Source: Actinomycetota bacterium
GTDB lineage: Bacteria; Actinomycetota; UBA4738; HRBIN12
DNA length: 50,420 nt
Assembly: GCA_046728055.1 (NCBI GenBank)
Contig: JBKPDU010000018.1
Location: 1-50,420 of the forward strand
Direction: 5' to 3'
Below, piece after piece: positions 5,232-48,045 of the stretch. The notes beneath the pieces were generated by a model, which was not told where the DNA came from, made no database searches, and saw nothing but the letters and a program-made list of their open reading frames with translations. Position 1 is the first letter of the stretch. Each line of letters begins with the position of its first letter. Position numbers and translations under genes: made by a program.

Positions 5232-7154
5232 ATGCAACGTGGAGAGAAAGGCCATCCCCTGGTGAGGGCCAAACCGAACGCACCCGCCATCGCGTCGCGT
5301 TTCGCGTCGCTCGATACAGTGCGCGATCTCTTGGCGCGTCAAGAGGATCTACCTCAGGGCGCCATCCAAGCGATCCAGGCCCTCTCCGGAGAGCTTCGGC
5401 GGGCCACCGACGAGCTGGGCGAAGCCGACGCGCGCTACCGAGCCGTGGTCGAGCAGATCCCGGCCATCGTCTACACCGACGTCGTGGACGACACCATGGC
5501 CAGCACCTATGTGAGCCCACAGATCGAGGAGTTGCTCGGGATCACTCCAGAGGAGTACATCGCCGATCCGGATCTGTGGGCCAAGCTGTTGCATCCGGAG
5601 GACAAGGAGCAGGCCATCCAGACCTACCTCCATGGACGGATCGCTGGTGAGCCATTCAGCTTCGAGTACCGCCTGCTGGCCAGGGACGGACGGGTCGTGT
5701 GGTTCCGCGACAGCGCGGTGGTGGTGAACGACCGGACGGGCGCCCCCGCATTCGTCCACGGCGTGATGTTCGACATCACCGACCGGAAGAACGCGGAGGA
5801 ACAGGTCGCCTTCCTGGCCTATCACGACAGCCTGACCGGCCTTCCCAACCGGACGATGTTCGAGGAGCTCCTCGATCTCGGCTTGGCCAGGGCCCGCCGT
5901 CACGACCTCTCCGTGGCCGTGCTGTGCATCGATGTCGACGACTTCAAGCTGATCAACGAGAGCCTCGGCTACGAGGCGGGCGACGCCCTGCTGCGCGCCG
6001 TCGCGGATCGTCTCCGTGAGGCGACGCGGGAGACCGACCTTGTAGCCCGGCAGGGTGGGGACGAGTTCCTGTTGCTGCTGGCCGACATCGAGGGTGGCGC
6101 TGTCCCCGGGTTCGAGGGCACGGACGCCGCGATCCTGGTGGTCGAATCGGTCGCCGCGCGAGTCCACGAGTCGCTTCGGGCGCCGTTCAACGTCGCCGGC
6201 ACCGAGCTGTATGTCTCGGCGAGCATCGGCATCAGCATGTTTCCGCACGACGCCGACGATGCCGCCTCCCTCCTGAAGAACGCCGACGCCGCCATGTACC
6301 AGAGCAGGAAGACGGTTCCCGGCAGCTACCTCCTGCACTGGAGGCAGAGCGAGGAGGCGCTGGGCAAGCTGGCCCTCACGACCCGCCTCCGAAAGGCCGT
6401 GGAGAACCAGAACTGGCAGCTCCACTACCAACCGGTCGTCGAGCTGGCGGAGGGGAAGATGGTGGGCGTGGAGGCTCTCATTCGGTGGGCCGACCCCAAC
6501 GGGGGCCTGATCCCTCCCGGCGAGTTCATCCCCCTGGCCGAGGAGATGGGGCTGATCGAGGCCATCGGGGACTGGGTGGTCGAGGAGCTGAGCCGGCAGG
6601 CCGCCGAATGGCGGGCGGAAGGGCTCGAGCTCGAGGTGTCCTTCAACCTCTCACCCCGGCAACTGTGGCAGCCCGAACTGACCGAGAAGATCCTCGATCA
6701 GCTCGCCGCGGCCAAGCTCGACCCCGGGAGCATCATCGTCGAGGTGACGGAGTCGGCGGCGATGGCGGACCCGGAACGGACCCTGCGGATCCTCCGGGAC
6801 TTGAACGGCCGTGGCCTGCGCCTGGCCCTGGACGACTTCGGCACCGGCTACTCGTCGTTCGCCCGGCTCCGGTACATGCCCGTCGACGTGCTGAAGATCG
6901 ACCGGCTGTTCATCCGGGACGTCGCCAAGGACGCCCAGGCCGCCGACATGGTTCGGGCCATCATCCAGCTGGCGAACGGCCTGGGGATGACCCCGCTCGC
7001 CGAAGGCATCGAGACCGCGGACGAATGGCGGTTCCTGGTGGACCAGGGGTGCCGCCTGGGCCAGGGGTTCTACTTCTGCCGCCCGGCCTCCGCGGAGAAC
7101 ATCCTGGCCCGGTACCGCCGGTCCGGGTTCAAGCTGCTCGGATCGGCCTGCTAG
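5232..7154 (+). CDS. PAS-GGDEF-EAL signalling protein (diguanylate cyclase/phosphodiesterase)
   Basis: 640 aa. Has a PAS-like segment (YRAVVEQIPAIVYTD), a GGDEF motif (ARQGGDEFLLLL), an EAL motif (VEALIRW) and DDFGTGYSS. The exact start is uncertain. Confidence 0.85.
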   Translation: MQRGEKGHPLVRAKPNAPAIASRFASLDTVRDLLARQEDLPQGAIQAIQALSGELRRATDELGEADARYRAVVEQIPAIVYTDVVDDTMASTYVSPQIEELLGITPEEYIADPDLWAKLLHPEDKEQAIQTYLHGRIAGEPFSFEYRLLARDGRVVWFRDSAVVVNDRTGAPAFVHGVMFDITDRKNAEEQVAFLAYHDSLTGLPNRTMFEELLDLGLARARRHDLSVAVLCIDVDDFKLINESLGYEAGDALLRAVADRLREATRETDLVARQGGDEFLLLLADIEGGAVPGFEGTDAAILVVESVAARVHESLRAPFNVAGTELYVSASIGISMFPHDADDAASLLKNADAAMYQSRKTVPGSYLLHWRQSEEALGKLALTTRLRKAVENQNWQLHYQPVVELAEGKMVGVEALIRWADPNGGLIPPGEFIPLAEEMGLIEAIGDWVVEELSRQAAEWRAEGLELEVSFNLSPRQLWQPELTEKILDQLAAAKLDPGSIIVEVTESAAMADPERTLRILRDLNGRGLRLALDDFGTGYSSFARLRYMPVDVLKIDRLFIRDVAKDAQAADMVRAIIQLANGLGMTPLAEGIETADEWRFLVDQGCRLGQGFYFCRPASAENILARYRRSGFKLLGSAC

Positions 7155-8538: not shown

Positions 8539-10260
8539 ATGCGCGGCCCCACCGGCGATCTGGCCCACCGCCTGGCCGTCGCGCGAGGCGACGAGCCCGC
8601 CGACGCCGTCCTGGCGGGAGGTCGCGTGCTGTCGGTGTTCACCGGCGAGCTCCTCGACGCCGACGTCGCCGTGGCCGGCGACCACGTGGCCGGCGTGGGA
8701 CGGTACGAGGGCCGGCGAGCGGTCGATGCGTCGGGGCTCATCCTGCTTCCCGGGTTCATCGACGGGCACATGCACATCGAGTCCACCAAGCTCCCGCCGG
8801 ACGAGTTCGCCCGGGCGGTGCTGCCCTGGGGAACGACCACGGCCATCCTGGATCCTCACGAGATCGCCAATGTGTTCGGGCTCGAGGGCGTTCGCTCGTT
8901 GCTGGAGGCCTCTCGCGGCATCCCGCTCGATCTCTTCGTGATGGTCTCTTCGTGCGTGCCGGCGAGCCCCTTCGAGTCCAGCGGCGCGACGGTGGACGCC
9001 GACGACATCGCCCGGTTCCTGGCCGAAGAGCCCAACGCGCTCGGGCTGGCCGAGATGATGGACGCCCCCGCGGTCATCGAGGGCGAGATGGGAACGTTGG
9101 CCAAGATCGCGGCCTCTCGGGGACGGCACATCGACGGCCATGCCCCGGGGTTATCCGGTCGCCGGCTGAACGCCTACCTCGCAGCCGGCGTCCGGAGCGA
9201 CCACGAGTGCACGACGCTCGACGAAGCGTTGGAGAAGCGCCGGCTGGGCATGACCATCATGATCAGGGAGGGTTCCGCGGCGCGGAACCTCGAGGCACTC
9301 ATCCCCCTGGTCCTGGAGCACGGTCCGGCGAACTGCCTCCTGTGCACGGACGACCGGGAGCCCGATCACCTGCTGGAGGAAGGCCACATCAACGACGTGA
9401 TCCGTCGAGCGGTCGCGCTCGGCTGTTCGCCGGCCGATGCCGTGGCCATGGCAACGCTGAACGCGGCGCGATACCACCGACTCCCCGAGCACGGGGCCGT
9501 CGCGCCCGGGTACCTCGCGGACATCGTGGCGGTCGAGGACCTGCAAAGGTTCCAACCGATCCGCGTGTGGAAGCGAGGCCGCCTGGTGGCCGAGGGCGGG
9601 AGATCCCTCGACGTGCCGCGATCCCCGATGCCCGACTGGATGCGCGGGAGCGTCCGTGTTCCCCACCTGGTCGCCGAGAGCTTCCGGATCCAGGCCACCG
9701 GCAGGGTCCGGGTGATCGGGGTCGAGCCCGGCCAGATCGTGACCAGAGCCCTGATCGAGGACGCAAACATCGTGGACGGTCTGGCGGCGGCCGACCCCTC
9801 ACGCGACCTGGCGAAGATCGCCGTGGTGGAGCGGCACCGGGGCTCCGGACGGATCGGCCTTGGATTCGTCCGGGGCTTCGGCCTGCAACGCGGCGCCATG
9901 GCCTCGACGCACGCCCACGACGCCCACAATGTGGTCGTCGTGGGCGTCGACGACGGCGACATGGCCGCCGCGGTGAACCGCTTGGCGGAGACCGGCGGTG
10001 GCCAGGTCGCCGTGGCCGCCGGGGCCGTCCTTGAAGAGATCCCGTGCCCGTTCGGCGGCCTACTCTCCGATCGGCCGGCGGAGGAGGTGGCCGCCCTCGC
10101 CCGTGCCATGGGCAAGGCCGCCGAGGAGATGGGTGTGAGCCTCGCCTCGCCGTTCATGGCCATGTCGTTCCTGGCGCTGTCGGTGGTTCCCGAGCTGAAG
10201 CTCACCGATCGGGGTCTGGTCGACGTGGAGCGCTTTGAGCTGGTGCCGCTGGAGGTGTAG
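8539..10260 (+). CDS. ade: Adenine deaminase
   Basis: Amidohydrolase metal motif FIDGHMHIES, LDPHEIANV, and full-length similarity in pattern to Ade. Start is ATG 8539 (MRGPTGDL..); the alternative is ATG 8470 from the track. Confidence 0.8.
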   Translation: MRGPTGDLAHRLAVARGDEPADAVLAGGRVLSVFTGELLDADVAVAGDHVAGVGRYEGRRAVDASGLILLPGFIDGHMHIESTKLPPDEFARAVLPWGTTTAILDPHEIANVFGLEGVRSLLEASRGIPLDLFVMVSSCVPASPFESSGATVDADDIARFLAEEPNALGLAEMMDAPAVIEGEMGTLAKIAASRGRHIDGHAPGLSGRRLNAYLAAGVRSDHECTTLDEALEKRRLGMTIMIREGSAARNLEALIPLVLEHGPANCLLCTDDREPDHLLEEGHINDVIRRAVALGCSPADAVAMATLNAARYHRLPEHGAVAPGYLADIVAVEDLQRFQPIRVWKRGRLVAEGGRSLDVPRSPMPDWMRGSVRVPHLVAESFRIQATGRVRVIGVEPGQIVTRALIEDANIVDGLAAADPSRDLAKIAVVERHRGSGRIGLGFVRGFGLQRGAMASTHAHDAHNVVVVGVDDGDMAAAVNRLAETGGGQVAVAAGAVLEEIPCPFGGLLSDRPAEEVAALARAMGKAAEEMGVSLASPFMAMSFLALSVVPELKLTDRGLVDVERFELVPLEV

Positions 10261-10266
10261 GAGGAC

Positions 10267-12096
10267 TCAGGCCAGAGCGCCGCGGATCGCGGCCGCGATC
10301 TTCGGCCCGGAGATGCCGGCCCAGTCCCGGAGCTCGTCGGGGGTCCCCGAGCCCGGCATCTCGGTTACTCCCAGCTTGAGCACTCGACCCGAGAGCTCTC
10401 CCTCGCCGGCCAGCGCCTGCAGGACGGCGTCGCCCAGCCCACCGTCGATCCAATGGTCCTCCACCACCACGACGAGCCCCGTCTCGCGAAGGGCGGCGGC
10501 CAGCGTCGTCACGTCGATCGGTTTCACCGAGTACGCGTCGATGACCCGGACCGCCGTGCCGTCGGCCGAGAGCTCGTCGGCCGCTTTCAGGGCCTCGTAG
10601 ACCGTCACGCCCGCTCCAACGATGCTCGCCCGATCGCCGTCGCTCGAGCGAAGGACCTTGCTCCCCCCGATGGGGAACGGCTCGTCCACCTCGTAGAGCT
10701 TCGGCGTCCCCTCCCGGGTCGTGCGGATGTATGCGACGCCCGAAACATCGAACATCGCCGCCGTGAGCTTGGCCGCGGCGTTGCCGTCCGCCGGATACAG
10801 CACCGTGGAGCCATGGACGGCCCGCATCATGGCCAGGTCCTCCAGGGCCATCTGCGACGGACCGTCCTCACCGATCGACACGCCGGCGTGCGACCCCGAG
10901 AGGCGGAGGTTCGCCCGGCTGACCGCGGCCATCCTGATGAAGTCGTAGGCACGGGTCACGAACGCGCCGAACGTCGCCGCGAACGGCGTCTTGCCCAGGA
11001 CCTGGAGGCCGACGGCCGCGGCGACCATGCACTGCTCGGCGATGTACATCTCGAGGAACCGGTCGGGCGCGACCTTCTGGAAGTCCTCGGTGTGCGTGGA
11101 GTTGGACACCTCGCCGTCCAAGACCACCAGGGAAGGGTTGTCGGCCATCGCCGCGAGGGTCTCGCCGAACGCCTTCCGCGTGGCCACGGCGTCGTCGTAG
11201 CCGGGCAGCTCGTACGCGAACGGCGTGGGTGGTTGGGGGATCCGCAGCTCGGGCTTCGGAGGGGTGATCGTGATGTTCCTCGGCCCGCCAAGCTCGGCGA
11301 CCGCCCTCTCCGCCTCCTCCTTCGACAGCGCCTTGCCGTGCCATCCCTCCTTGTTGGCCAGGAAGGAGACGCCGTGGCCTTTCTCGGTCCTGGCCACGAC
11401 GAGCACGGGCCCGTCGGCGTCCTCGGCCTCCCGATAGGCCGCGTCGATGGCCGACACGTCGTGGCCGTCGACCTGGATGGCGTGCCACCCGAACGCCCTG
11501 GCGCGCTCGGCGTAGACGTCCCCGTGCCACTCGAGCATTGTCGGACCGCGCTGCCCCAGCCGGTTCATGTCCAGGATGGCCACCAGGTTGGCCGCGCCGT
11601 GGAACCAGGCGTTGGCCATCGCCTCCCATACCGATCCCTCGGCGGCCTCCGAGTCGCCGAGCAGGACCCACACCCGGGCCGGGCTCTGATCGATCTTCAG
11701 GGCAAGCGCCATGCCCAGGCCGATCGGAAGCCCCTGGCCGAGCGACCCCGTGGCCACGTCGATCCACGGCAGCTCCGGCACCGGCGCCGGGTGCCCCTGC
11801 AGCGGGCTGCCGAACGCGCGGAACGTGAGGAGCTGCTCGTCGGTAATGGCCCCGACGGCCTTCAGCACCGAGTACATGAGGGGCGAGGCGTGGCCCTTGG
11901 ACAGGACGAAGCGGTCATTGGACGGGTTCTTCGGATCGGACACGTCGTATCGAAGGTGGTCCGAGTAGAGCACGGCGAGTAGATGAGCCGCCGACATGGA
12001 GGACGTGGGATGGCCCGATCCGGCCTGCGTCGACGCGCGGATGCTGTCCACCGCGAGCTGCGCGGCGAGCTCGTTCCACTCCTGGACCTCGTTCAT
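10267..12096 (-). CDS. tkt: Transketolase, short (~610 aa) single-chain type
   Basis: GSGHPTSSMSAA, DRFVLSKGHASP, ATGSLGQGL, LLGDSEAAEGSVWEA and ILDMNRLGQ. The pattern closely parallels the mammalian-type short transketolase. Confidence 0.85.
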   Translation of the reverse strand: MNEVQEWNELAAQLAVDSIRASTQAGSGHPTSSMSAAHLLAVLYSDHLRYDVSDPKNPSNDRFVLSKGHASPLMYSVLKAVGAITDEQLLTFRAFGSPLQGHPAPVPELPWIDVATGSLGQGLPIGLGMALALKIDQSPARVWVLLGDSEAAEGSVWEAMANAWFHGAANLVAILDMNRLGQRGPTMLEWHGDVYAERARAFGWHAIQVDGHDVSAIDAAYREAEDADGPVLVVARTEKGHGVSFLANKEGWHGKALSKEEAERAVAELGGPRNITITPPKPELRIPQPPTPFAYELPGYDDAVATRKAFGETLAAMADNPSLVVLDGEVSNSTHTEDFQKVAPDRFLEMYIAEQCMVAAAVGLQVLGKTPFAATFGAFVTRAYDFIRMAAVSRANLRLSGSHAGVSIGEDGPSQMALEDLAMMRAVHGSTVLYPADGNAAAKLTAAMFDVSGVAYIRTTREGTPKLYEVDEPFPIGGSKVLRSSDGDRASIVGAGVTVYEALKAADELSADGTAVRVIDAYSVKPIDVTTLAAALRETGLVVVVEDHWIDGGLGDAVLQALAGEGELSGRVLKLGVTEMPGSGTPDELRDWAGISGPKIAAAIRGALA

Positions 12097-24650: not shown

Positions 24651-25379
24651 TCAGAGCCCGGCCAGGCGCGCCAGTCCCGAGATCTTTCGCAGGACGAACC
24701 GCCGGCCGTCGCGCTCGACCAGTCCCCGTCGCTGGAAGTCCGACAGGATCCTGGTCACGTTCTCCCGACTGCCGCCGCACAGGCTGGCCAGGTCGGCGTG
24801 TGTCACGATGGCCGGCAGGATCGCGCCGTCGTCGGGAAGCTCGTCGAGGCTCGGGGACACCAGCTGGAGAAGGCGTTTGGCCACCCGACCCTTCAGGTCC
24901 AGGAACAGCAGGTCGTCCACGAAGGCCTCGTGGGCACTGACCTGACGCGCCAGTGCGCGGAGCAGGGCCAGCGAGGCCGTCGGCTGTCGGGTCAGGAACG
25001 ACTGGAAGGCCTCCCCCGGTGTGACCCAGACCTCGGTCTCCTCCAGAGCCAGCGCCGCCGCGGTCCTGGGCATCCCCCCCAACAGGCCGAGCTCCCCGAA
25101 GAACTGCGGCTGGTCGATCGTGGTGTGCAGCATCCGCTGCCCGCTGGCCGAGAGTGAGCTGATCTCCACCCGCCCCTCCATAAGGAAATGGATCTCGTGC
25201 GAGGGGTCGCCCTGATGGAACAGGTAGGTGTTCCGCCGGTAGTGACGGAGCGTCCCGGTCGAGGCAAGCTCATGGATGGCGCGGGGGTCGATCCCCTCGA
25301 ACAGCGGCATCCTGGCCATCTGCTCCTCGATCGTCGCCCGAGATCGCATCGTTCGTACCATCAGGCGAAGCGTACCCAC
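24651..25379 (-). CDS. crp: Crp/Fnr-family transcriptional regulator (cNMP-binding domain + HTH)
   Basis: 242 aa. cNMP motif FGELGLLGGMPRTAAA. The HTH recognition helix GGSRENVTRIL has the R-E-x-x-x-R pattern of E. coli CRP (RETVGR). The track start is GTG 25379; internal ATGs (25361, 25349, 25319, 25310) are possible starts. Confidence 0.85.
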   Translation of the reverse strand: MGTLRLMVRTMRSRATIEEQMARMPLFEGIDPRAIHELASTGTLRHYRRNTYLFHQGDPSHEIHFLMEGRVEISSLSASGQRMLHTTIDQPQFFGELGLLGGMPRTAAALALEETEVWVTPGEAFQSFLTRQPTASLALLRALARQVSAHEAFVDDLLFLDLKGRVAKRLLQLVSPSLDELPDDGAILPAIVTHADLASLCGGSRENVTRILSDFQRRGLVERDGRRFVLRKISGLARLAGL

Positions 25380-25411: not shown

Positions 25412-25444
25412 GGACGGGCCCGGCGCTTGGCGCCGGGCCCGTCC
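25412..25444 (-). terminator. Perfect 15-bp GC hairpin followed by UUUU on the minus strand (intrinsic terminator or attenuator)
   Basis: GGACGGGCCCGGCGC-ttg-GCGCCGGGCCCGTCC. On the minus strand it is followed by CTCATTTTCC. It lies 24 nt after the small ORF stop and 33 nt before the crp GTG. Confidence 0.6.
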
Positions 25445-25467
25445 GAGGGAATCGCGGTTCGGTGGGA

Positions 25468-25587
25468 CTACGACTTCTTGAGCTTCTTCATCCCCTTCTT
25501 CCGCGTCACGCGCGTCGCAGCCTGCTTGGAGCTCGCCGTGGTCTTCTTGGCCGCTGGCTTCTTCGGGGAGACCTTCTTCGCCGCCAC
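25468..25587 (-). CDS. Unlisted 39-aa Lys/Ala-rich highly basic small protein
   Basis: GGGAGGAGG lies 7 nt before GTG 25587. Translation is VAAKKVSPKKPAAKKTTASSKQAATRVTRKKGMKKLKKS*. All 14 Lys codons are AAG, and 36 of 38 third positions after the start codon are G/C. A hairpin terminator follows. It is below the 60-aa cutoff of the ORF track. Confidence 0.7.
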   Translation of the reverse strand: MAAKKVSPKKPAAKKTTASSKQAATRVTRKKGMKKLKKS

Positions 25588-25667
25588 CCGATTCACCTCC
25601 TCCCCATCTCGTCAGCGCTTCATCGGCATCGGTTGGACCGATCCTGAAGCTCACCCACCGGGGAAGG

Positions 25668-25683
25668 CGTGTCGTCCGTCACC
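25668..25683. promoter_or_regulatory. Degenerate CRP-type box (7/10), in phase with two stronger boxes
   Basis: CGTGTCGTCCGTCACC. Its centre is 24 bp from the next box. Confidence 0.3.
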
Positions 25684-25691
25684 GACCCCAG

Positions 25692-25707
25692 GGTGATGTC
25701 GGTCACA
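25692..25707. promoter_or_regulatory. CRP-type box (9/10 match to TGTGA-N6-TCACA)
   Basis: GGTGATGTCGGTCACA. Its centre is 24 bp from the perfect box. Confidence 0.5.
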
Positions 25708-25715
25708 GCGAAGGT

Positions 25716-25731
25716 TGTGACGCCCGTCACA
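25716..25731. promoter_or_regulatory. CRP-type box, perfect TGTGA-N6-TCACA palindrome
   Basis: TGTGACGCCCGTCACA. It lies 15 nt after the Cys-rich ORF stop, with its centre about 136 nt upstream of the 39-aa ORF start. The Crp/Fnr gene is about 340 bp away. Confidence 0.6.
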
Positions 25732-25746
25732 CGACGGAGATCGAGG

Positions 25747-25956
25747 TCAGTCCAGCTCCGGGAGGTCGAGGGGATCCGGTCGGGGCCTGCACGCCCCGCA
25801 GTACAGAGCGTCCTCGACGACGAGCGCCCTGGTGACGTCGCCTCCTCGAAACAGCTCGAGCACGAACGGGAGGGTCTCGACGTGGTCCTCGCAGATCCCA
25901 CGGCCACAGAAGCGGCACGCTCCCACCGCCGTCCTGCGACAGTGCCAGCAATCCAT
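25747..25956 (-). CDS. Small Cys-rich zinc-ribbon protein (DUF2180-like)
   Basis: 69 aa: MDCWHCRRTAVGACRFCGRGICEDH....YCGAC, with three CxxC pairs plus Cys/His. GGGAG lies 7 nt before the ATG, which is 24 nt downstream of the M50 gene. The family name is from memory. Confidence 0.65.
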   Translation of the reverse strand: MDCWHCRRTAVGACRFCGRGICEDHVETLPFVLELFRGGDVTRALVVEDALYCGACRPRPDPLDLPELD

Positions 25957-25980: not shown

Positions 25981-28149
25981 CTAATGCTGCCACGTTCGGT
26001 CCACGCTCGATGACGGCTTCAACGTCCCCTTGCGGAACGCCCCCGCCATCAGCCCGTCGAACCCGTCCCGGTCCAGACGGAACGCCCGCACGGGGGTCCT
26101 GGCCACCACGCTCGCGGTCCGAGGGACCTTCCGCAAGAGCGCGATCTCACCGAAGTGGGCTCCTGGACCCAGGGTCCGTACGAGCGTGCCGTCCTGGAGC
26201 ACCTCGACCTGCCCGGAGCCGATGGCGTAGAACGCGTCGCCGGCCTCGCCCTGCTCCAGGATCGCTTCGCCGGGAGCCACGTTCACCCATCGACCGTGCT
26301 CGAGGATCTCGGACAGCTCGTCGGGCTCGAGCGCAGCGAAGGCGGGCAGCGTGCGGAGCTCGGCCACGGCTTCGAGCGTCGGAGCGAACGCCGGGACGTG
26401 GACCATGTCGGCGAGCAGGCGCTCGAACGTGCTCTTGTCGATCTCGAATACCTGGGCGTCCTCGATGACCTCGACCGTGGCCGTTCTCGGCGCCGCCTCC
26501 GCCAGTCCGAGCTCGCCGAAGGACTCGCCGGGGCCAAGGACCCGGAGGACCCTTCGGTCTCCAGTTGCACGATCCTCCTCCACGACTTGGAGTGTGCCCC
26601 GGCGAACGACGTAGAAGGCCTGGGCTCGGTCCCCCTGTCGGACCACGGGCTTGCCCGCCGGAAACGCATGGAGCCGGACACGTCCTGCGAGGTCGGAGAG
26701 CACGTCCTCGGGCAGCTCCTCGAGGATCGGGAGCCGGTCGATGAGGTTGGCCGCCTCGACCCTCCACGACGTCTCCAGGCGAAACCGGACCTGCTCCCAC
26801 ACACCACGGAGCCTCCGAAAAAGCGCACGCGCCAGTGCGATCAGGCCCCGCAGGAGAGGACCGGTGACGAAGACCATAAGGGCAAGCAGCAGGACGCGGC
26901 CCACGACCCCGCCGTTCCACAGTTTGCCTACCAGGCCGCCGAAGATCTCCCGCCAGAAGTAGAAGGAGGTCGCGAAGGCGAAGATCGAGAACGCCACGCC
27001 GAGCGTCCCGTACAGGCCCAGACCGGCCTCCTGTTTGGAGAACCGCTCCCGTGCCCGGAGCTTCCGCCACAGGTCGTACCGGATGAACTGGAGCGACATC
27101 GGCCGAAGGTCGGGCACCTGGATCAGGTCGGACAGGATCCAGTACCCGTCGAGCTCCAAAAGTGGAACCAGGTTGAGGAAGATCACGAAGTAGTTCAGGA
27201 GGGCGAACTTGTACAGAACCGGCGCCACGATCGACCCGGGGAACGCCCACACGATCGCTGCCGCCGCACCGGCGATGATGAGCTCAGCATAGGGACCGGC
27301 GAACGACTGCACGATCCTGTGGCGGCGCTCCATCATCAGCCCGTCGGAGGAATCGACGAAGAAGGCCGGCGCACCGAAGTAGATCATGAAGCCGGCGCTC
27401 TTCACCCGCCGTCCGTAGTGCACCAGGACGGTGGCGTGGGCCAGCTCGTGGGTGAACGTGAGGAAGTAGTTCAGGGCCAGGATGATGAGCGAGGCCGCCG
27501 CCGCCGACTGGGCGCCGATGCCGAACCGGCCGGAGCGGTACACGGCGATGAACGCGACGAATCCGACGATCGCGATCAATCCCACCGGCACAGCCACCCA
27601 CCCCTTGAAGAACCATCGCAGCCCGTTCCGGTAGCTCCAGTCCACCATCCGATGAGCCCCGGCCCACTCCACCGACAGGGTCCGGACGAACTGCTGGGCC
27701 TTTCGCCGGCCGGTCGACGACGGCTTCAGCGCCCGCCGGACGATCGCGTCGGAATCGACGAACCTCGTCTCCAGGAAGTTGCCCACCCGCAATTGGCGCA
27801 CGAGGTCGATGACGCCGGAGAGCTCCAGGTCGCCCGACTCCCGGAACCGTTCGACCACGATCTCCCGTACGGTCCTCGACCCGTCCATGAGCGACAGCAG
27901 CTCGACCTCACCCGGCTCCAGTCGGTAGTGCAGCAGGTCCCTGGGGTTGGCCACGATCGCATAGTCGTTCCCCCATCGAAGGCGGAACTGCTTGACCTCC
28001 ACGTCCGCGGCAAGCTTGGGACGAAACTCCGCCGGATCGAGCTTCTCCGCCAGGTCGTCCCAAAATCCTCCTTCCCCATCCGAGGGGTGCACGGCCAGAC
28101 GATCGGAGACGGTCCGCCACAGGCCGCTCGGGGACCGGACGGTCGTCAC
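25981..28149 (-). CDS. Membrane M50 (site-2 protease) metalloprotease fused to an N-terminal PqqD/RRE-like domain and two C-terminal cyclic-nucleotide-binding domains
   Basis: 722 aa. HELAH at aa 234-238 within a TM helix, and NLVPLLELDG at aa 326-335 (S2P signature). About 7 hydrophobic helices between aa 185 and 440. cNMP motifs FGELGLAEAAPRTATV and FGEIALLRKVPRTASV. aa ~45-127 (AIVANPRDLLHYRLEPGEVELLSLMDGSRTVREIV...VIDLVRQLRVGNFLE) fit the PqqD pattern. The GTG start overlaps the upstream TGA. Confidence 0.8.
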   Translation of the reverse strand: MTTVRSPSGLWRTVSDRLAVHPSDGEGGFWDDLAEKLDPAEFRPKLAADVEVKQFRLRWGNDYAIVANPRDLLHYRLEPGEVELLSLMDGSRTVREIVVERFRESGDLELSGVIDLVRQLRVGNFLETRFVDSDAIVRRALKPSSTGRRKAQQFVRTLSVEWAGAHRMVDWSYRNGLRWFFKGWVAVPVGLIAIVGFVAFIAVYRSGRFGIGAQSAAAASLIILALNYFLTFTHELAHATVLVHYGRRVKSAGFMIYFGAPAFFVDSSDGLMMERRHRIVQSFAGPYAELIIAGAAAAIVWAFPGSIVAPVLYKFALLNYFVIFLNLVPLLELDGYWILSDLIQVPDLRPMSLQFIRYDLWRKLRARERFSKQEAGLGLYGTLGVAFSIFAFATSFYFWREIFGGLVGKLWNGGVVGRVLLLALMVFVTGPLLRGLIALARALFRRLRGVWEQVRFRLETSWRVEAANLIDRLPILEELPEDVLSDLAGRVRLHAFPAGKPVVRQGDRAQAFYVVRRGTLQVVEEDRATGDRRVLRVLGPGESFGELGLAEAAPRTATVEVIEDAQVFEIDKSTFERLLADMVHVPAFAPTLEAVAELRTLPAFAALEPDELSEILEHGRWVNVAPGEAILEQGEAGDAFYAIGSGQVEVLQDGTLVRTLGPGAHFGEIALLRKVPRTASVVARTPVRAFRLDRDGFDGLMAGAFRKGTLKPSSSVDRTWQH

Positions 28150-28865
28150 GGAGCGGGGCTCTGGGCCTGGCGCTCCTCGTCGATCCGTCGCTGGATGGAG
28201 GAGTACACGGACAAGCGAAGCGGCGGCCGCCGGCTGGAGGCGAACAGGTTCCCCAGGAACGCCCCACCGAGCAGCGCGATGCAGACCGTGGCGATCACCG
28301 TCCCCCAGGAAACGCCGCCACCGTCCTTCGGGACCTGGAGCGAACGGGTCACGGATGCCGTGAGCCCCCGATCATCGGTGGCGGCGAACCGGAACCGCGC
28401 GTCGGAAGGGATCGAGCGCAGGACGTCGGCCGTCGCGGCAAGCGACAGGTTCGCGCCCCCCGTCGTCACGACGACCTCGGCCCCGCTCATCTGGAGGTAG
28501 GAGCCGGCCACCAGGCCCCCGGTCCCGGCGAGGACTTCCTGGTCGCCGATGGCCAGTTTCTGGTCCTCGACGTCGTACGTGACGGTCTCGACCGCTTGAC
28601 CTCCGATGAGCAAAGAGAGGTCGAGTTCGTGCAGTCCCAGCCACCCACCGACCTCGGCCGCGTCGATCCGAAGCACCAGCCGGGATCCGAGTGCGAGGGC
28701 CCCGGAGGCGCTTCCTCCGACCGTGGGGCCCTCCGTCACCGCTCCTGCCGGTGCACCAGCCACGCCGAGCGCGATGGCGGATCCCATCAACGCTGCTGCG
28801 GCCCGAGCCCCTCGCTTCCACTTCACGGCCGGGCCATCTTCGTTCCGCTCACCTGGCCATGGCAA
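28146..28865 (-). CDS. Exported protein with N-terminal signal peptide and C-terminal transmembrane anchor plus a basic cytoplasmic tail
   Basis: 239 aa. Signal region KWKRGARAAAALMGSAIALGVAGAPAGA, a Gly/Val/Thr-rich beta-like ectodomain, TM WGTVIATVCIALLGGAFLGNLF, and tail ASSRRPPLRLSVYSSIQRRIDEERQ. Its stop overlaps the M50 gene start (GTGA). Confidence 0.6.
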   Translation of the reverse strand: MPWPGERNEDGPAVKWKRGARAAAALMGSAIALGVAGAPAGAVTEGPTVGGSASGALALGSRLVLRIDAAEVGGWLGLHELDLSLLIGGQAVETVTYDVEDQKLAIGDQEVLAGTGGLVAGSYLQMSGAEVVVTTGGANLSLAATADVLRSIPSDARFRFAATDDRGLTASVTRSLQVPKDGGGVSWGTVIATVCIALLGGAFLGNLFASSRRPPLRLSVYSSIQRRIDEERQAQSPAP

Positions 28866-28897: not shown

Positions 28898-28913
28898 CGT
28901 GACGGATGGCACA
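28898..28913. promoter_or_regulatory. CRP-like box (8/10) in the divergent region upstream of the M50 operon
   Basis: CGTGACGGATGGCACA. It lies 33-48 nt upstream of the first possible start of the 28865 gene and about 92-107 nt upstream of the divergent 29005 ORF. Confidence 0.35.
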
Positions 28914-30959: not shown

Positions 30960-31027
30960 GCGGCCCAGGCGAGCGTGGTCATCGCCCCCTCTTGACGATT
31001 ACCTGTAATCCTGTAATCATCGGCCTC

Positions 31028-31555
31028 ATGCGAGGCTCAGCGCACGCTTCAGAAGAGGAATTGACGGGCTGGTTCGCCGGGCGGCTGCCCGCTGAGTGGT
31101 TCGCGGAGCCACCCGAGGTGTCCACCGATCGGGAGGAGATCCTGGTGGTGGGGACGCTCTCCGAGCCCGCGTTGGCGGAAGACGCGACTCCCGAGGCGGT
31201 GGGCGCAGCTCGGGCCGCCAGGATCGACGGCTTTCGCGAGGACACGCGGGCCCAGCGGATGCGGATCGCCGACGAGGCGCAGGGCCGGTTCGGCCGACGG
31301 GTCTCGTGGGGCTCGCGATGCGGCGACCTGACCAGGCTGTTCACCACGGTCTCGGTCCCGGCGATGACCCGGCTTCGGATGCCGGAGCGACGGGTCCTGG
31401 ACACGCTGGTGGATGCGGGCGTGGCTCGTTCGCGCAGCCACGCGCTGGCCTGGTGCGTGCGCCTGGTGTCCGAGAAGCAGGACGATTGGTTGAAGGACCT
31501 TCGACAGGCCCTCACCGAGGTGGAGAAGGTTCGTTCGGAGGGCCCGAAGACCTGA
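31028..31555 (+). CDS. Hypothetical protein with a possible C-terminal ribbon-helix-helix-like segment
   Basis: ATG 31028 (MRGSAHASEEELTGWFAG..). The C-terminal part is RRVLDTLVDAGVARSRSHALAWCVRLV. Coding-like composition. Confidence 0.5.
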   Translation: MRGSAHASEEELTGWFAGRLPAEWFAEPPEVSTDREEILVVGTLSEPALAEDATPEAVGAARAARIDGFREDTRAQRMRIADEAQGRFGRRVSWGSRCGDLTRLFTTVSVPAMTRLRMPERRVLDTLVDAGVARSRSHALAWCVRLVSEKQDDWLKDLRQALTEVEKVRSEGPKT

Positions 31556-47960: not shown

Positions 47961-47973
47961 GGCGAGGACCAGA

Positions 47974-48045
47974 GCTGGCGGTCGGATTCGAACCGACGAC
48001 CTGCTGTTTACAAGACAGCTGCTCTGCCAACTGAGCTACGCCAGC
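47974..48045 (-). tRNA. tRNA-Thr (anticodon UGU)
   Basis: The reverse complement folds as a cloverleaf: GCTGGCG-TA-GCTC-AGTTGGCA-GAGC-A-GCTGT-CTTGTAA-ACAGC-AGGTC-GTCGG-TTCGAAT-CCGAC-CGCCAGC. 72 nt, with CCA not encoded. Confidence 0.93.

Follow-up and report, generated by a model that had tools for sequence, protein, structure and literature searches.

A three-part, putative actinomycetotal intramembrane protease with an RRE-like domain and tandem cNMP-binding domains in a Crp-linked locus

We analyzed a 50,420-nucleotide stretch of DNA (the window) from an Actinomycetota bacterium (lineage UBA4738; HRBIN12; contig JBKPDU010000018.1 of assembly GCA_046728055.1, positions 1-50,420). One of its genes encodes a 722-amino-acid (aa) protein with three parts. 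These are an N-terminal domain with the fold of an RRE, the recognition element of ribosomally made, post-translationally modified peptide (RiPP) pathways, a site-2 protease (S2P) core predicted to be active within the membrane, and two C-terminal domains of the cyclic nucleotide monophosphate (cNMP)-binding type (CNB domains). The gene is linked to a small zinc-finger gene, to CRP-type palindromes and to a gene for a Crp/Fnr-family regulator. With moderate confidence, we read the protein as a cNMP-gated, RRE-guided intramembrane peptidase that would serve as the proteolytic arm of a Crp-linked cAMP response. The gene and its parts are located as follows.

25981..28149, minus strand: RRE-S2P-CNB2 protein, 722 aa, GTG start (open reading frame and translation, Pfam and NCBIfam matches, homologues)
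27769..28017, minus strand: PqqD/RRE-like winged-helix domain, aa ~45-127, predicted cytoplasmic (AlphaFold2 topology, Foldseek)
26830..27600, minus strand: M50/site-2-protease core with six transmembrane segments, aa ~184-440 (hydropathy, AlphaFold2, core profile)
27436..27450, minus strand: HELAH zinc-binding/catalytic motif, aa 234-238 (sequence, conservation, alignment with mjS2P)
27145..27174, minus strand: NLVPLLELDG motif, aa 326-335, source of the third zinc ligand, an Asp (sequence, conservation, alignment with mjS2P)
26395..26748, minus strand: cNMP-binding domain A, aa ~468-585, cassette 544-FGELGLAEAAPRTATV (PF00027, PDB matches, conservation)
26035..26382, minus strand: cNMP-binding domain B, aa ~590-705, cassette 666-FGEIALLRKVPRTASV (PF00027, PDB matches, conservation, sequence)

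A minus-strand open reading frame (ORF) with a GTG start fills 25981-28149 exactly, and the plus-strand frame over the same positions contains many stops. The GC content at the three codon positions (0.69/0.45/0.87) is typical of a real gene; the window as a whole has ~68% GC. The GTG shares bases with the stop codon of the ORF upstream of it (GTGA), and because homologues 719-725 aa long can be aligned from residue 1 onwards, the start is probably correct. The original prediction of a three-domain protein at this position was borne out on the minus strand. Every motif that it cited is present in the translation (LMDG at 87-90, NFLE at 124-127, HELAH at 234-238, NLVPLLELDG at 326-335, FGELGL..PRTAT at 544-558 and FGEIAL..PRTAS at 666-680), and the domains were recovered by profile or structure comparison. 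Across 57 homologues aligned with the window protein, each motif residue is either invariant or conserved to at least 90%. Pfam detected cNMP_binding in two stretches (E 1.9e-44) and Peptidase_M50 (PF02163) at 28.6 bits, a marginal match to a model with a gathering cut-off of 27.2 bits.

Judged by its sequence, the core is a six-helix site-2-type intramembrane zinc metalloprotease with predicted activity. In an alignment of 58 sequences H234, E235 and H238 never vary, nor do N326, P329, D334 and G335; both S2P signatures are intact, as had been claimed. HELAH lies inside the hydrophobic segment 215-238. When a profile of aa 170-460 was compared with PDB sequences, the sole credible match was 3b4r (MJ0392/mjS2P, the archetypal site-2 protease; E 0.007). 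This alignment spans HExxH to LDG and pairs HELAH with HELGH and NLVPLLELDG with NLIPAFPMDG. The best NCBIfam match was the daptide protease model NF041824 (aa 59-440, E 8e-47, 160 bits). Hydropathy placed transmembrane segments at ~185-203, 215-238, 285-303, 307-330, 375-398 and 415-438, and stretches rich in Lys and Arg lie before the first segment, at 241-282, at 336-375 and after the sixth (441-470). From the six segments and this Lys/Arg distribution we predict an N-in/C-in topology in which the RRE, the side of the core with the active site and the CNB domains all face the cytoplasm. The AlphaFold2 model of aa 1-460 contains the expected six helices and a beta-hairpin (249-268) after the HExxH helix.

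The N-terminal domain was modeled with AlphaFold2 twice, as aa 1-190 from 73 aligned sequences and within the aa 1-460 model. It is predicted to form three strands (51-55, 63-68 and 73-77) followed by three helices (79-85, 94-105 and 110-122), with a predicted local distance difference test score (pLDDT) >90 over aa 41-100. Foldseek ranked TbiB1, a lasso-peptide RRE, with its leader (5v1u/5v1v) at the top for the aa 1-190 model (probability 1.0, target-normalized template-modeling score 0.67-0.69), and it also returned the lasso B1 protein 6jx3. For the aa 1-460 model, PqqD (5sxy) came first, followed by TbiB1, TigE, lasso B1 and SkfB. For TbiB1, PqqD and lasso B1 the probability was 1.0 and the target-normalized score 0.58-0.69 (0.66-0.69 for TbiB1); E values of the RRE-type matches were modest, at 0.01-0.05. 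The Foldseek comparison was run as a check on the proposed PqqD/RRE fold and did not refute it; with this beta3-alpha3 topology and with TbiB1, PqqD and lasso B1 as best PDB matches, the models support the fold assignment well. Membership of the PqqD/RRE sequence families is indicated only indirectly. Pfam gave no match for the isolated domain at E up to 10, the PqqD model included, and the ScmD model TIGR04248 from NCBIfam, which is PqqD-related, matched weakly (E 0.12 over aa 61-100). The alignment with NF041824, a family in which RRE-Finder had called the RRE, starts at aa 59. When aa 1-190 were the only query, the search for homologues yielded nothing but gene fragments and did not reach distant relatives of the domain. 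The domain may recognize a peptide or a protein tail.

The C-terminal region (aa ~468-705) matches the tandem regulatory domains of PKG and PKA-R among PDB sequences at E 1e-29 to 1e-36. With PF00027 found twice and both phosphate-binding cassettes intact (FGELGLAEAAPRTAT, 544-558, and FGEIALLRKVPRTAS, 666-680), the region holds two complete cNMP-binding modules, as predicted. The cassette arginines are R555 and R677, and the Gly-Glu and Arg-[S/T]-Ala (Arg-Thr-Ala) elements are at least 90% conserved in the 57 homologues. The putative ligand would be cAMP or another cNMP, and its binding may gate the protease. We regard it as improbable that the domains instead bind another ligand, as do the cNMP-type domains of NtcA and CooA in the CRP/FNR family, or play only a structural or oligomerization role, with a protease that is either constitutive or under the control of just the zinc-finger protein. 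Such a role would fit the result that no cyclase was found among the window ORFs scanned, but cyclases do lie beside several relatives, and a Crp gene and CRP boxes are linked to the protease. The conserved elements of both cassettes, and best PDB matches to genuine cNMP-binding PKG and PKA domains, likewise argue for cNMP sensing.

We also considered and rejected a role as a Pycsar-like anti-phage effector, that is, a membrane protein switched on by a cyclic nucleotide whose production follows infection. PADLOC effector and cyclase models do match the protein (E 1e-16 to 1e-23), but this homology is confined to the CNB domain (aa ~606-701) and the neighboring Crp protein gives the same matches. 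The gene has no adjacent pyrimidine cyclase or any other cyclase, and it lies in conserved housekeeping synteny in 80 species-level genomes and not in a defense island. An anti-phage function is thus very improbable.

The genes and elements around the protease that bear on its function are the following.

25747..25956, minus strand: 69-aa zinc-finger gene (DUF2180/C5HCH-like), 24 nucleotides past the protease stop (translation, conservation)
25692..25731: two CRP-type palindromes (sequence scan, conservation)
25468..25587, minus strand: Lys-rich 39-aa micro-ORF, VAAKKVSPKK...AATRVTRKK... (ribosome-binding site, conservation)
25412..25444, minus strand: intrinsic terminator-like hairpin after the micro-ORF (15-bp stem with 14 G-C pairs, T-run)
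24651..25379, minus strand: Crp/Fnr-family regulator, cNMP_binding plus HTH_Crp_2 (Pfam, NCBIfam)
28146..28865, minus strand: upstream membrane protein, 239 aa, translationally coupled (translation)

We compared this arrangement across 80 loci at 52-90% protease identity. The zinc-finger gene is present in 80 of 81 related loci (L001-L081), and the single exception stops at a contig edge. It mostly lies 1-46 nucleotides from the protease stop, and its product is 71-96% identical across loci, versus 52-90% for the protease. The protein (consensus MDCWHCRRTAVGxCRFCGRGICEDH...ALVVEDALxCGACxPRPDPxDLPELD) has eight conserved Cys/His metal ligands and a conserved tail, PRPDPxDLPELD, which reads PRPDPLDLPELD in the window. 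Its resemblance to DUF2180 and to the C5HCH finger of NSD3 in Pfam and PDB comparisons is weak. The zinc finger again adjoins proteases that are 30-37% identical, in differing gene orders. It lies upstream of the protease in L082, downstream in L085 and L087, and upstream of a CNB-less protease in L088; in L083, whose protease is 37% identical, it forms an operon with Crp that is divergent from the protease. The L086 contig ends at the locus and gives no context information. Because the zinc finger accompanies both CNB-bearing and CNB-less proteases, it is likelier to be an accessory or pseudo-substrate than a lineage-specific signaling substrate. Its tail is acidic with alternating hydrophobic residues, and it could plausibly be a ligand of the basic beta3/alpha3 face of the RRE (LHYRL, LSGVIDLVRQLRV).

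The two CRP-type palindromes sit directly after the zinc-finger stop. The box at 25716-25731 (TGTGACGGGCGTCACA) is a perfect TGTGA-N6-TCACA, and the one at 25692-25707 (TGTGACCGACATCACC) deviates from it by a single mismatch. In 71 of 73 loci a box with no more than one mismatch occurs at this position; such boxes number 129 in 993 kb, the majority of them at this position. The micro-ORF that follows has a strong ribosome-binding site (GGAGGAGG) and its protein reads VAAKKVSPKKPAAKK...AATRVTRKKGMKKLKKS. It matched no family, yet a Lys-rich homologue (MAEKKI[S/T]PK...AATRVTKK...) lies between the CRP boxes and crp in all 73 loci (73/73), and also in L083. Among the 74 related loci long enough to show it, 73 have the Crp gene itself downstream, and the gene is linked in L083 too. 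A search of the spacer between zinc finger and crp against Rfam found no known RNA. We rejected an 89-aa plus-strand ORF at 25427-25696 as a gene, since it is most likely an antisense shadow of the micro-ORF, with AAG/GAA codons read backwards; its Phe-rich translation is conserved in L001 too. In L083, two more genes (9566-9991 and 9988-10389) join the protease/Crp/zinc-finger module, one for a stand-alone cNMP-binding protein of 141 aa and one for a response regulator, which suggests a larger cNMP signaling neighborhood.

On the other side of the protease, the upstream protein consists, in order, of a signal or transmembrane segment, a variable ectodomain, a C-terminal transmembrane segment and a cytoplasmic tail. 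Identity over the protein is 30-50%, and the C-terminal transmembrane segment and juxtamembrane tail (28146-28320, minus strand; equivalents in L002-L079) are better conserved. The tail follows GNLxASRRRPPxRLSVYxxIQRRLDxER, and the window form includes SRRPPLRLSVY. Comparable ORFs overlap the protease start in ~41-46 of 75 loci (~55%), among them forms of 70-95 aa, kept by some genomes, that consist of the transmembrane segment and tail only. The RLS in this tail faintly echoes an RLSK junction in leaders of the PF14407 (Frankia_peptide) family described below, which may be chance.

No RiPP genes lie near the protease, and the module with CRP boxes, micro-ORF and Crp is vertically inherited; for these reasons we read the protein as the proteolytic arm of a cAMP response. 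In the mechanism that we propose, binding of cAMP or another cNMP by the tandem CNB domains would switch access to the protease or its activity, much as in SpoIVFB, which has a nucleotide-binding CBS domain. The zinc-finger protein would be an obligate accessory or pseudo-substrate, and the pattern P-x-x-[D/E]-P-hydrophobic-x-hydrophobic in its tail is a candidate docking motif. There are two candidate substrates, the zinc-finger protein and the membrane protein encoded upstream, whose cytoplasmic tail is conserved. The RRE would dock a short linear peptide of a partner and pass it to the cytoplasm-facing active site, a handover that parallels the one proposed for the daptide peptidase MpaP (PMC10036551). 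We extend this reading more tentatively to a scheme in which cAMP acts at two levels from one locus. It would drive Crp transcriptionally and also open a gated protease whose RRE captures the tail of the zinc-finger or membrane partner. If so, and we hold this full scheme to be possible but doubtful, it would be the first such case of cNMP-gated regulated intramembrane proteolysis, achieved through a repurposed RiPP leader peptidase.

Several known S2Ps, namely SpoIVFB and Rip3-type proteases (CBS domains) and RseP (PDZ domains), resemble the window protein in joining an S2P core to an appended regulatory domain. The CBS domains of the SpoIVFB/Rip3 type sense nucleotide (ATP) on the cytoplasmic side. 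In contrast, the putative sensor of the window protein is a PKA-R/PKG-like tandem CNB accompanied by an RRE, and no anti-sigma or pro-sigma substrate is evident.

The closest described proteins are the daptide proteases MpaP/DapP (NF041824; PMC10036551), which share an N-terminal RRE and an intramembrane M50 domain with the window protein; model positions 13-376 of 379 were aligned. The fusion of an RRE to the N-terminus of an intramembrane site-2 protease was the basis of daptide discovery, and it was proposed that leader removal by MpaP depends on the RRE (PMC10036551). We nevertheless rejected the assignment of the window protein to the daptide equivalog. Its score of 160 bits is below the cut-off of 300, and no ELExMEAP/C-terminal-Thr precursors, MpaB/C/D/M-type enzymes or other tailoring enzymes are nearby. 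It also adds two CNB domains and a zinc-finger partner, which the daptide paper does not describe (PMC10036551). We place the window protein in a family of RRE-S2P peptidases that is separate from the daptide equivalog. The epipeptide and pearlin pathways also employ M50 proteases (PMC10885120). EpeP/YydH, TglG and TmoG are membrane M50 proteases that act on ribosomal peptides, and the review that treats them does not mention RRE or CNB domains (PMC10885120). The YydH/LiaK model matched the window protein weakly (E 1e-11, aa 208-345; 45 bits versus a cut-off of 225), in the catalytic core only.

More distant relatives of the protease occur in a different setting. L085, L088 and L089 are RiPP-like clusters in which PF14407 precursors are accompanied by genes of the radical-SAM, YcaO or PqqD type. 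PF14407 denotes a leader, predicted for RiPP precursors, that is related to Nif11 (PMC12353581, PMC8939145). The precursor genes are at 1043-1270, 1428-1655 and 11775-12002 in L085, at 6614-6829 and 7050-7265 in L088, at 1980-2216 in L089 and in many of L090-L169. Their leaders all end in [D/E][D/E]R[L/I/V]SK, after which comes a short core of 6-20 aa. The L085 protease bears CNB domains, and a class III cyclase adjoins the zinc finger there; class III cyclase genes also lie beside CNB-bearing relatives in several metagenome loci. We examined 80 further diverse metagenome loci, where all counts are lower bounds because many contigs are short.

51 metagenome loci with CNB-bearing proteases: zinc finger in at least 26, PF14407 ORFs in at least 10
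29 metagenome loci with proteases without detected CNB: zinc finger in at least 11, PF14407 ORFs in at least 15

Overall, the zinc finger was found in at least 37 and PF14407 precursors in at least 25 of the 80. The proteases of the Frankia_peptide clusters (L085, L088, L089 and metagenome loci) share RRE and M50 with the window protein at 30-37% identity, often with the zinc finger and sometimes with tandem CNB domains and a cyclase. They differ in their precursors (leader ends [D/E]R[L/I]SK) and YcaO or radical-SAM genes; the window clade is without these and is linked to Crp instead. The clusters that combine PF14407 with an RRE-S2P look like an uncharacterized RiPP group, in some of which the protease is CNB-bearing and accompanied by a cyclase. 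We infer that the RRE-S2P family commonly processes Frankia_peptide-type precursors, that a dedicated zinc-finger partner is common in it, and that many members acquired tandem CNB domains.

These clusters bring in an alternative for the window protein, which could be a RiPP leader peptidase like its relatives. The ligand of its RRE would then be a Nif11/NHLP-like leader, that of a PF14407-type precursor with its gene at another site of the genome, and the CNB domains would tie maturation or export to cNMP levels. Two bare relatives (P0238 and P0256, ~30% identical) adjoin PF14407 precursors, YcaO and radical-SAM genes, and a CNB-bearing relative, P0216, lies in such a cluster with a cyclase. 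The metagenome counts above point the same way, as does the daptide protease model as best NCBIfam match. Given these relatives, the RRE of the window protein could still serve an unlinked precursor. However, dedicated RiPP proteases normally cluster with their precursors, and a hidden Markov model of PF14407 precursors found no match in the window or in L001-L081 (within ~8 kb). A regular expression for the daptide leader (ELExMEAP) matched nothing in the window or in 86 loci, and neither PF14407-like nor daptide-like ORFs occur within ~8 kb in the window or its 80 related loci. The other neighbors of the protease (MoaA, MoaB/XdhC, a sulfatase, a PrmC-like methyltransferase, a GroES-like protein, YjbQ, AbmR, GroEL and Acs) include no RiPP tailoring enzyme and keep a stable housekeeping synteny across 52-90% identity. 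We therefore consider a role in RiPP maturation rather unlikely for the window protein.

Other observations weigh against the reading of the protein as a cNMP-gated arm of the cAMP response. The relatives in RiPP clusters with Frankia_peptide precursors include CNB-bearing ones, and the zinc finger also accompanies CNB-less proteases there. The upstream gene for the transmembrane segment and tail is absent from ~45% of close loci, and the C-terminal transmembrane segment of its product is in type I orientation; classical S2P substrates are type II. A CRP box with two mismatches lies upstream of the protease operon (28898-28913) but is kept in only 9 of 68 loci, and for this reason we make no claim that Crp controls the protease operon. 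Foldseek of the aa 1-460 model returned RRE-type matches only and no S2P chain at E up to 10. The architecture, motifs, predicted topology, gene linkage and CRP boxes are observations, and cNMP binding and gating, the RRE ligand, the substrate and the output are proposals.

Proteins of this architecture are widespread. More than 1400 homologues share it; the named ones are all from uncultured Actinomycetota and carry the public labels cNMP-binding protein or Zn-dependent protease. When aa 1-460 were compared with the full set of 1.84 billion cluster representatives, 9446 matched at E up to 1e-3. RRE and M50 occur together in 124 of the best 147 representatives (50%-identity clusters), and these 124 comprise 60 with at least two CNB domains, seven with one and 57 with none. 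Long forms of ~1000-1150 aa occur in Solirubrobacterales and Zixibacteria. Among GTDB species genomes, 354 relatives were found, all from uncultured Actinomycetota or unclassified metagenome-assembled genomes. The three-part form is thus frequent in public metagenomes, and the earlier claim of a new control logic was overstated and only partly right, since the RRE-S2P fusion had also been published. A literature search for S2Ps carrying cNMP domains, or for DUF2180 or Franean1_4349, found nothing relevant, with subscription literature outside its scope.

Two further features of the window were recorded. The clear homologue of AbmR, an ATP-binding transcription factor, is encoded ~3 kb from the protease (30992-31555, plus strand; NF058631, 247 bits with a cut-off of 160), and this synteny is present in 18 of 81 loci; many of the 81 do not extend that far. 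In Mycobacterium tuberculosis, abmR neighbors an adenylyl cyclase and the small RNA Mcr11; Rfam detected no Mcr11 RNA in the window. The only Rfam match at gathering level in the window was a single tRNA gene (47973-48045, minus strand).

Control of site-2 proteases usually lies with an earlier cut at site 1 or with PDZ or CBS domains. If our reading holds, a protease that a cyclic nucleotide gates directly would give cAMP signaling a further output, post-translational and at the level of the membrane. The RRE is a known device of RiPP biosynthesis, and its presence in a conserved chromosomal module without nearby RiPP genes suggests that it can be reused for signaling. The locus offers testable partners in the tail of the zinc-finger protein, the tail of the membrane protein and a Crp protein with its own boxes. 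The wider family points to uncharacterized Frankia_peptide-type RiPP clusters, in some of which maturation is apparently under cNMP control.

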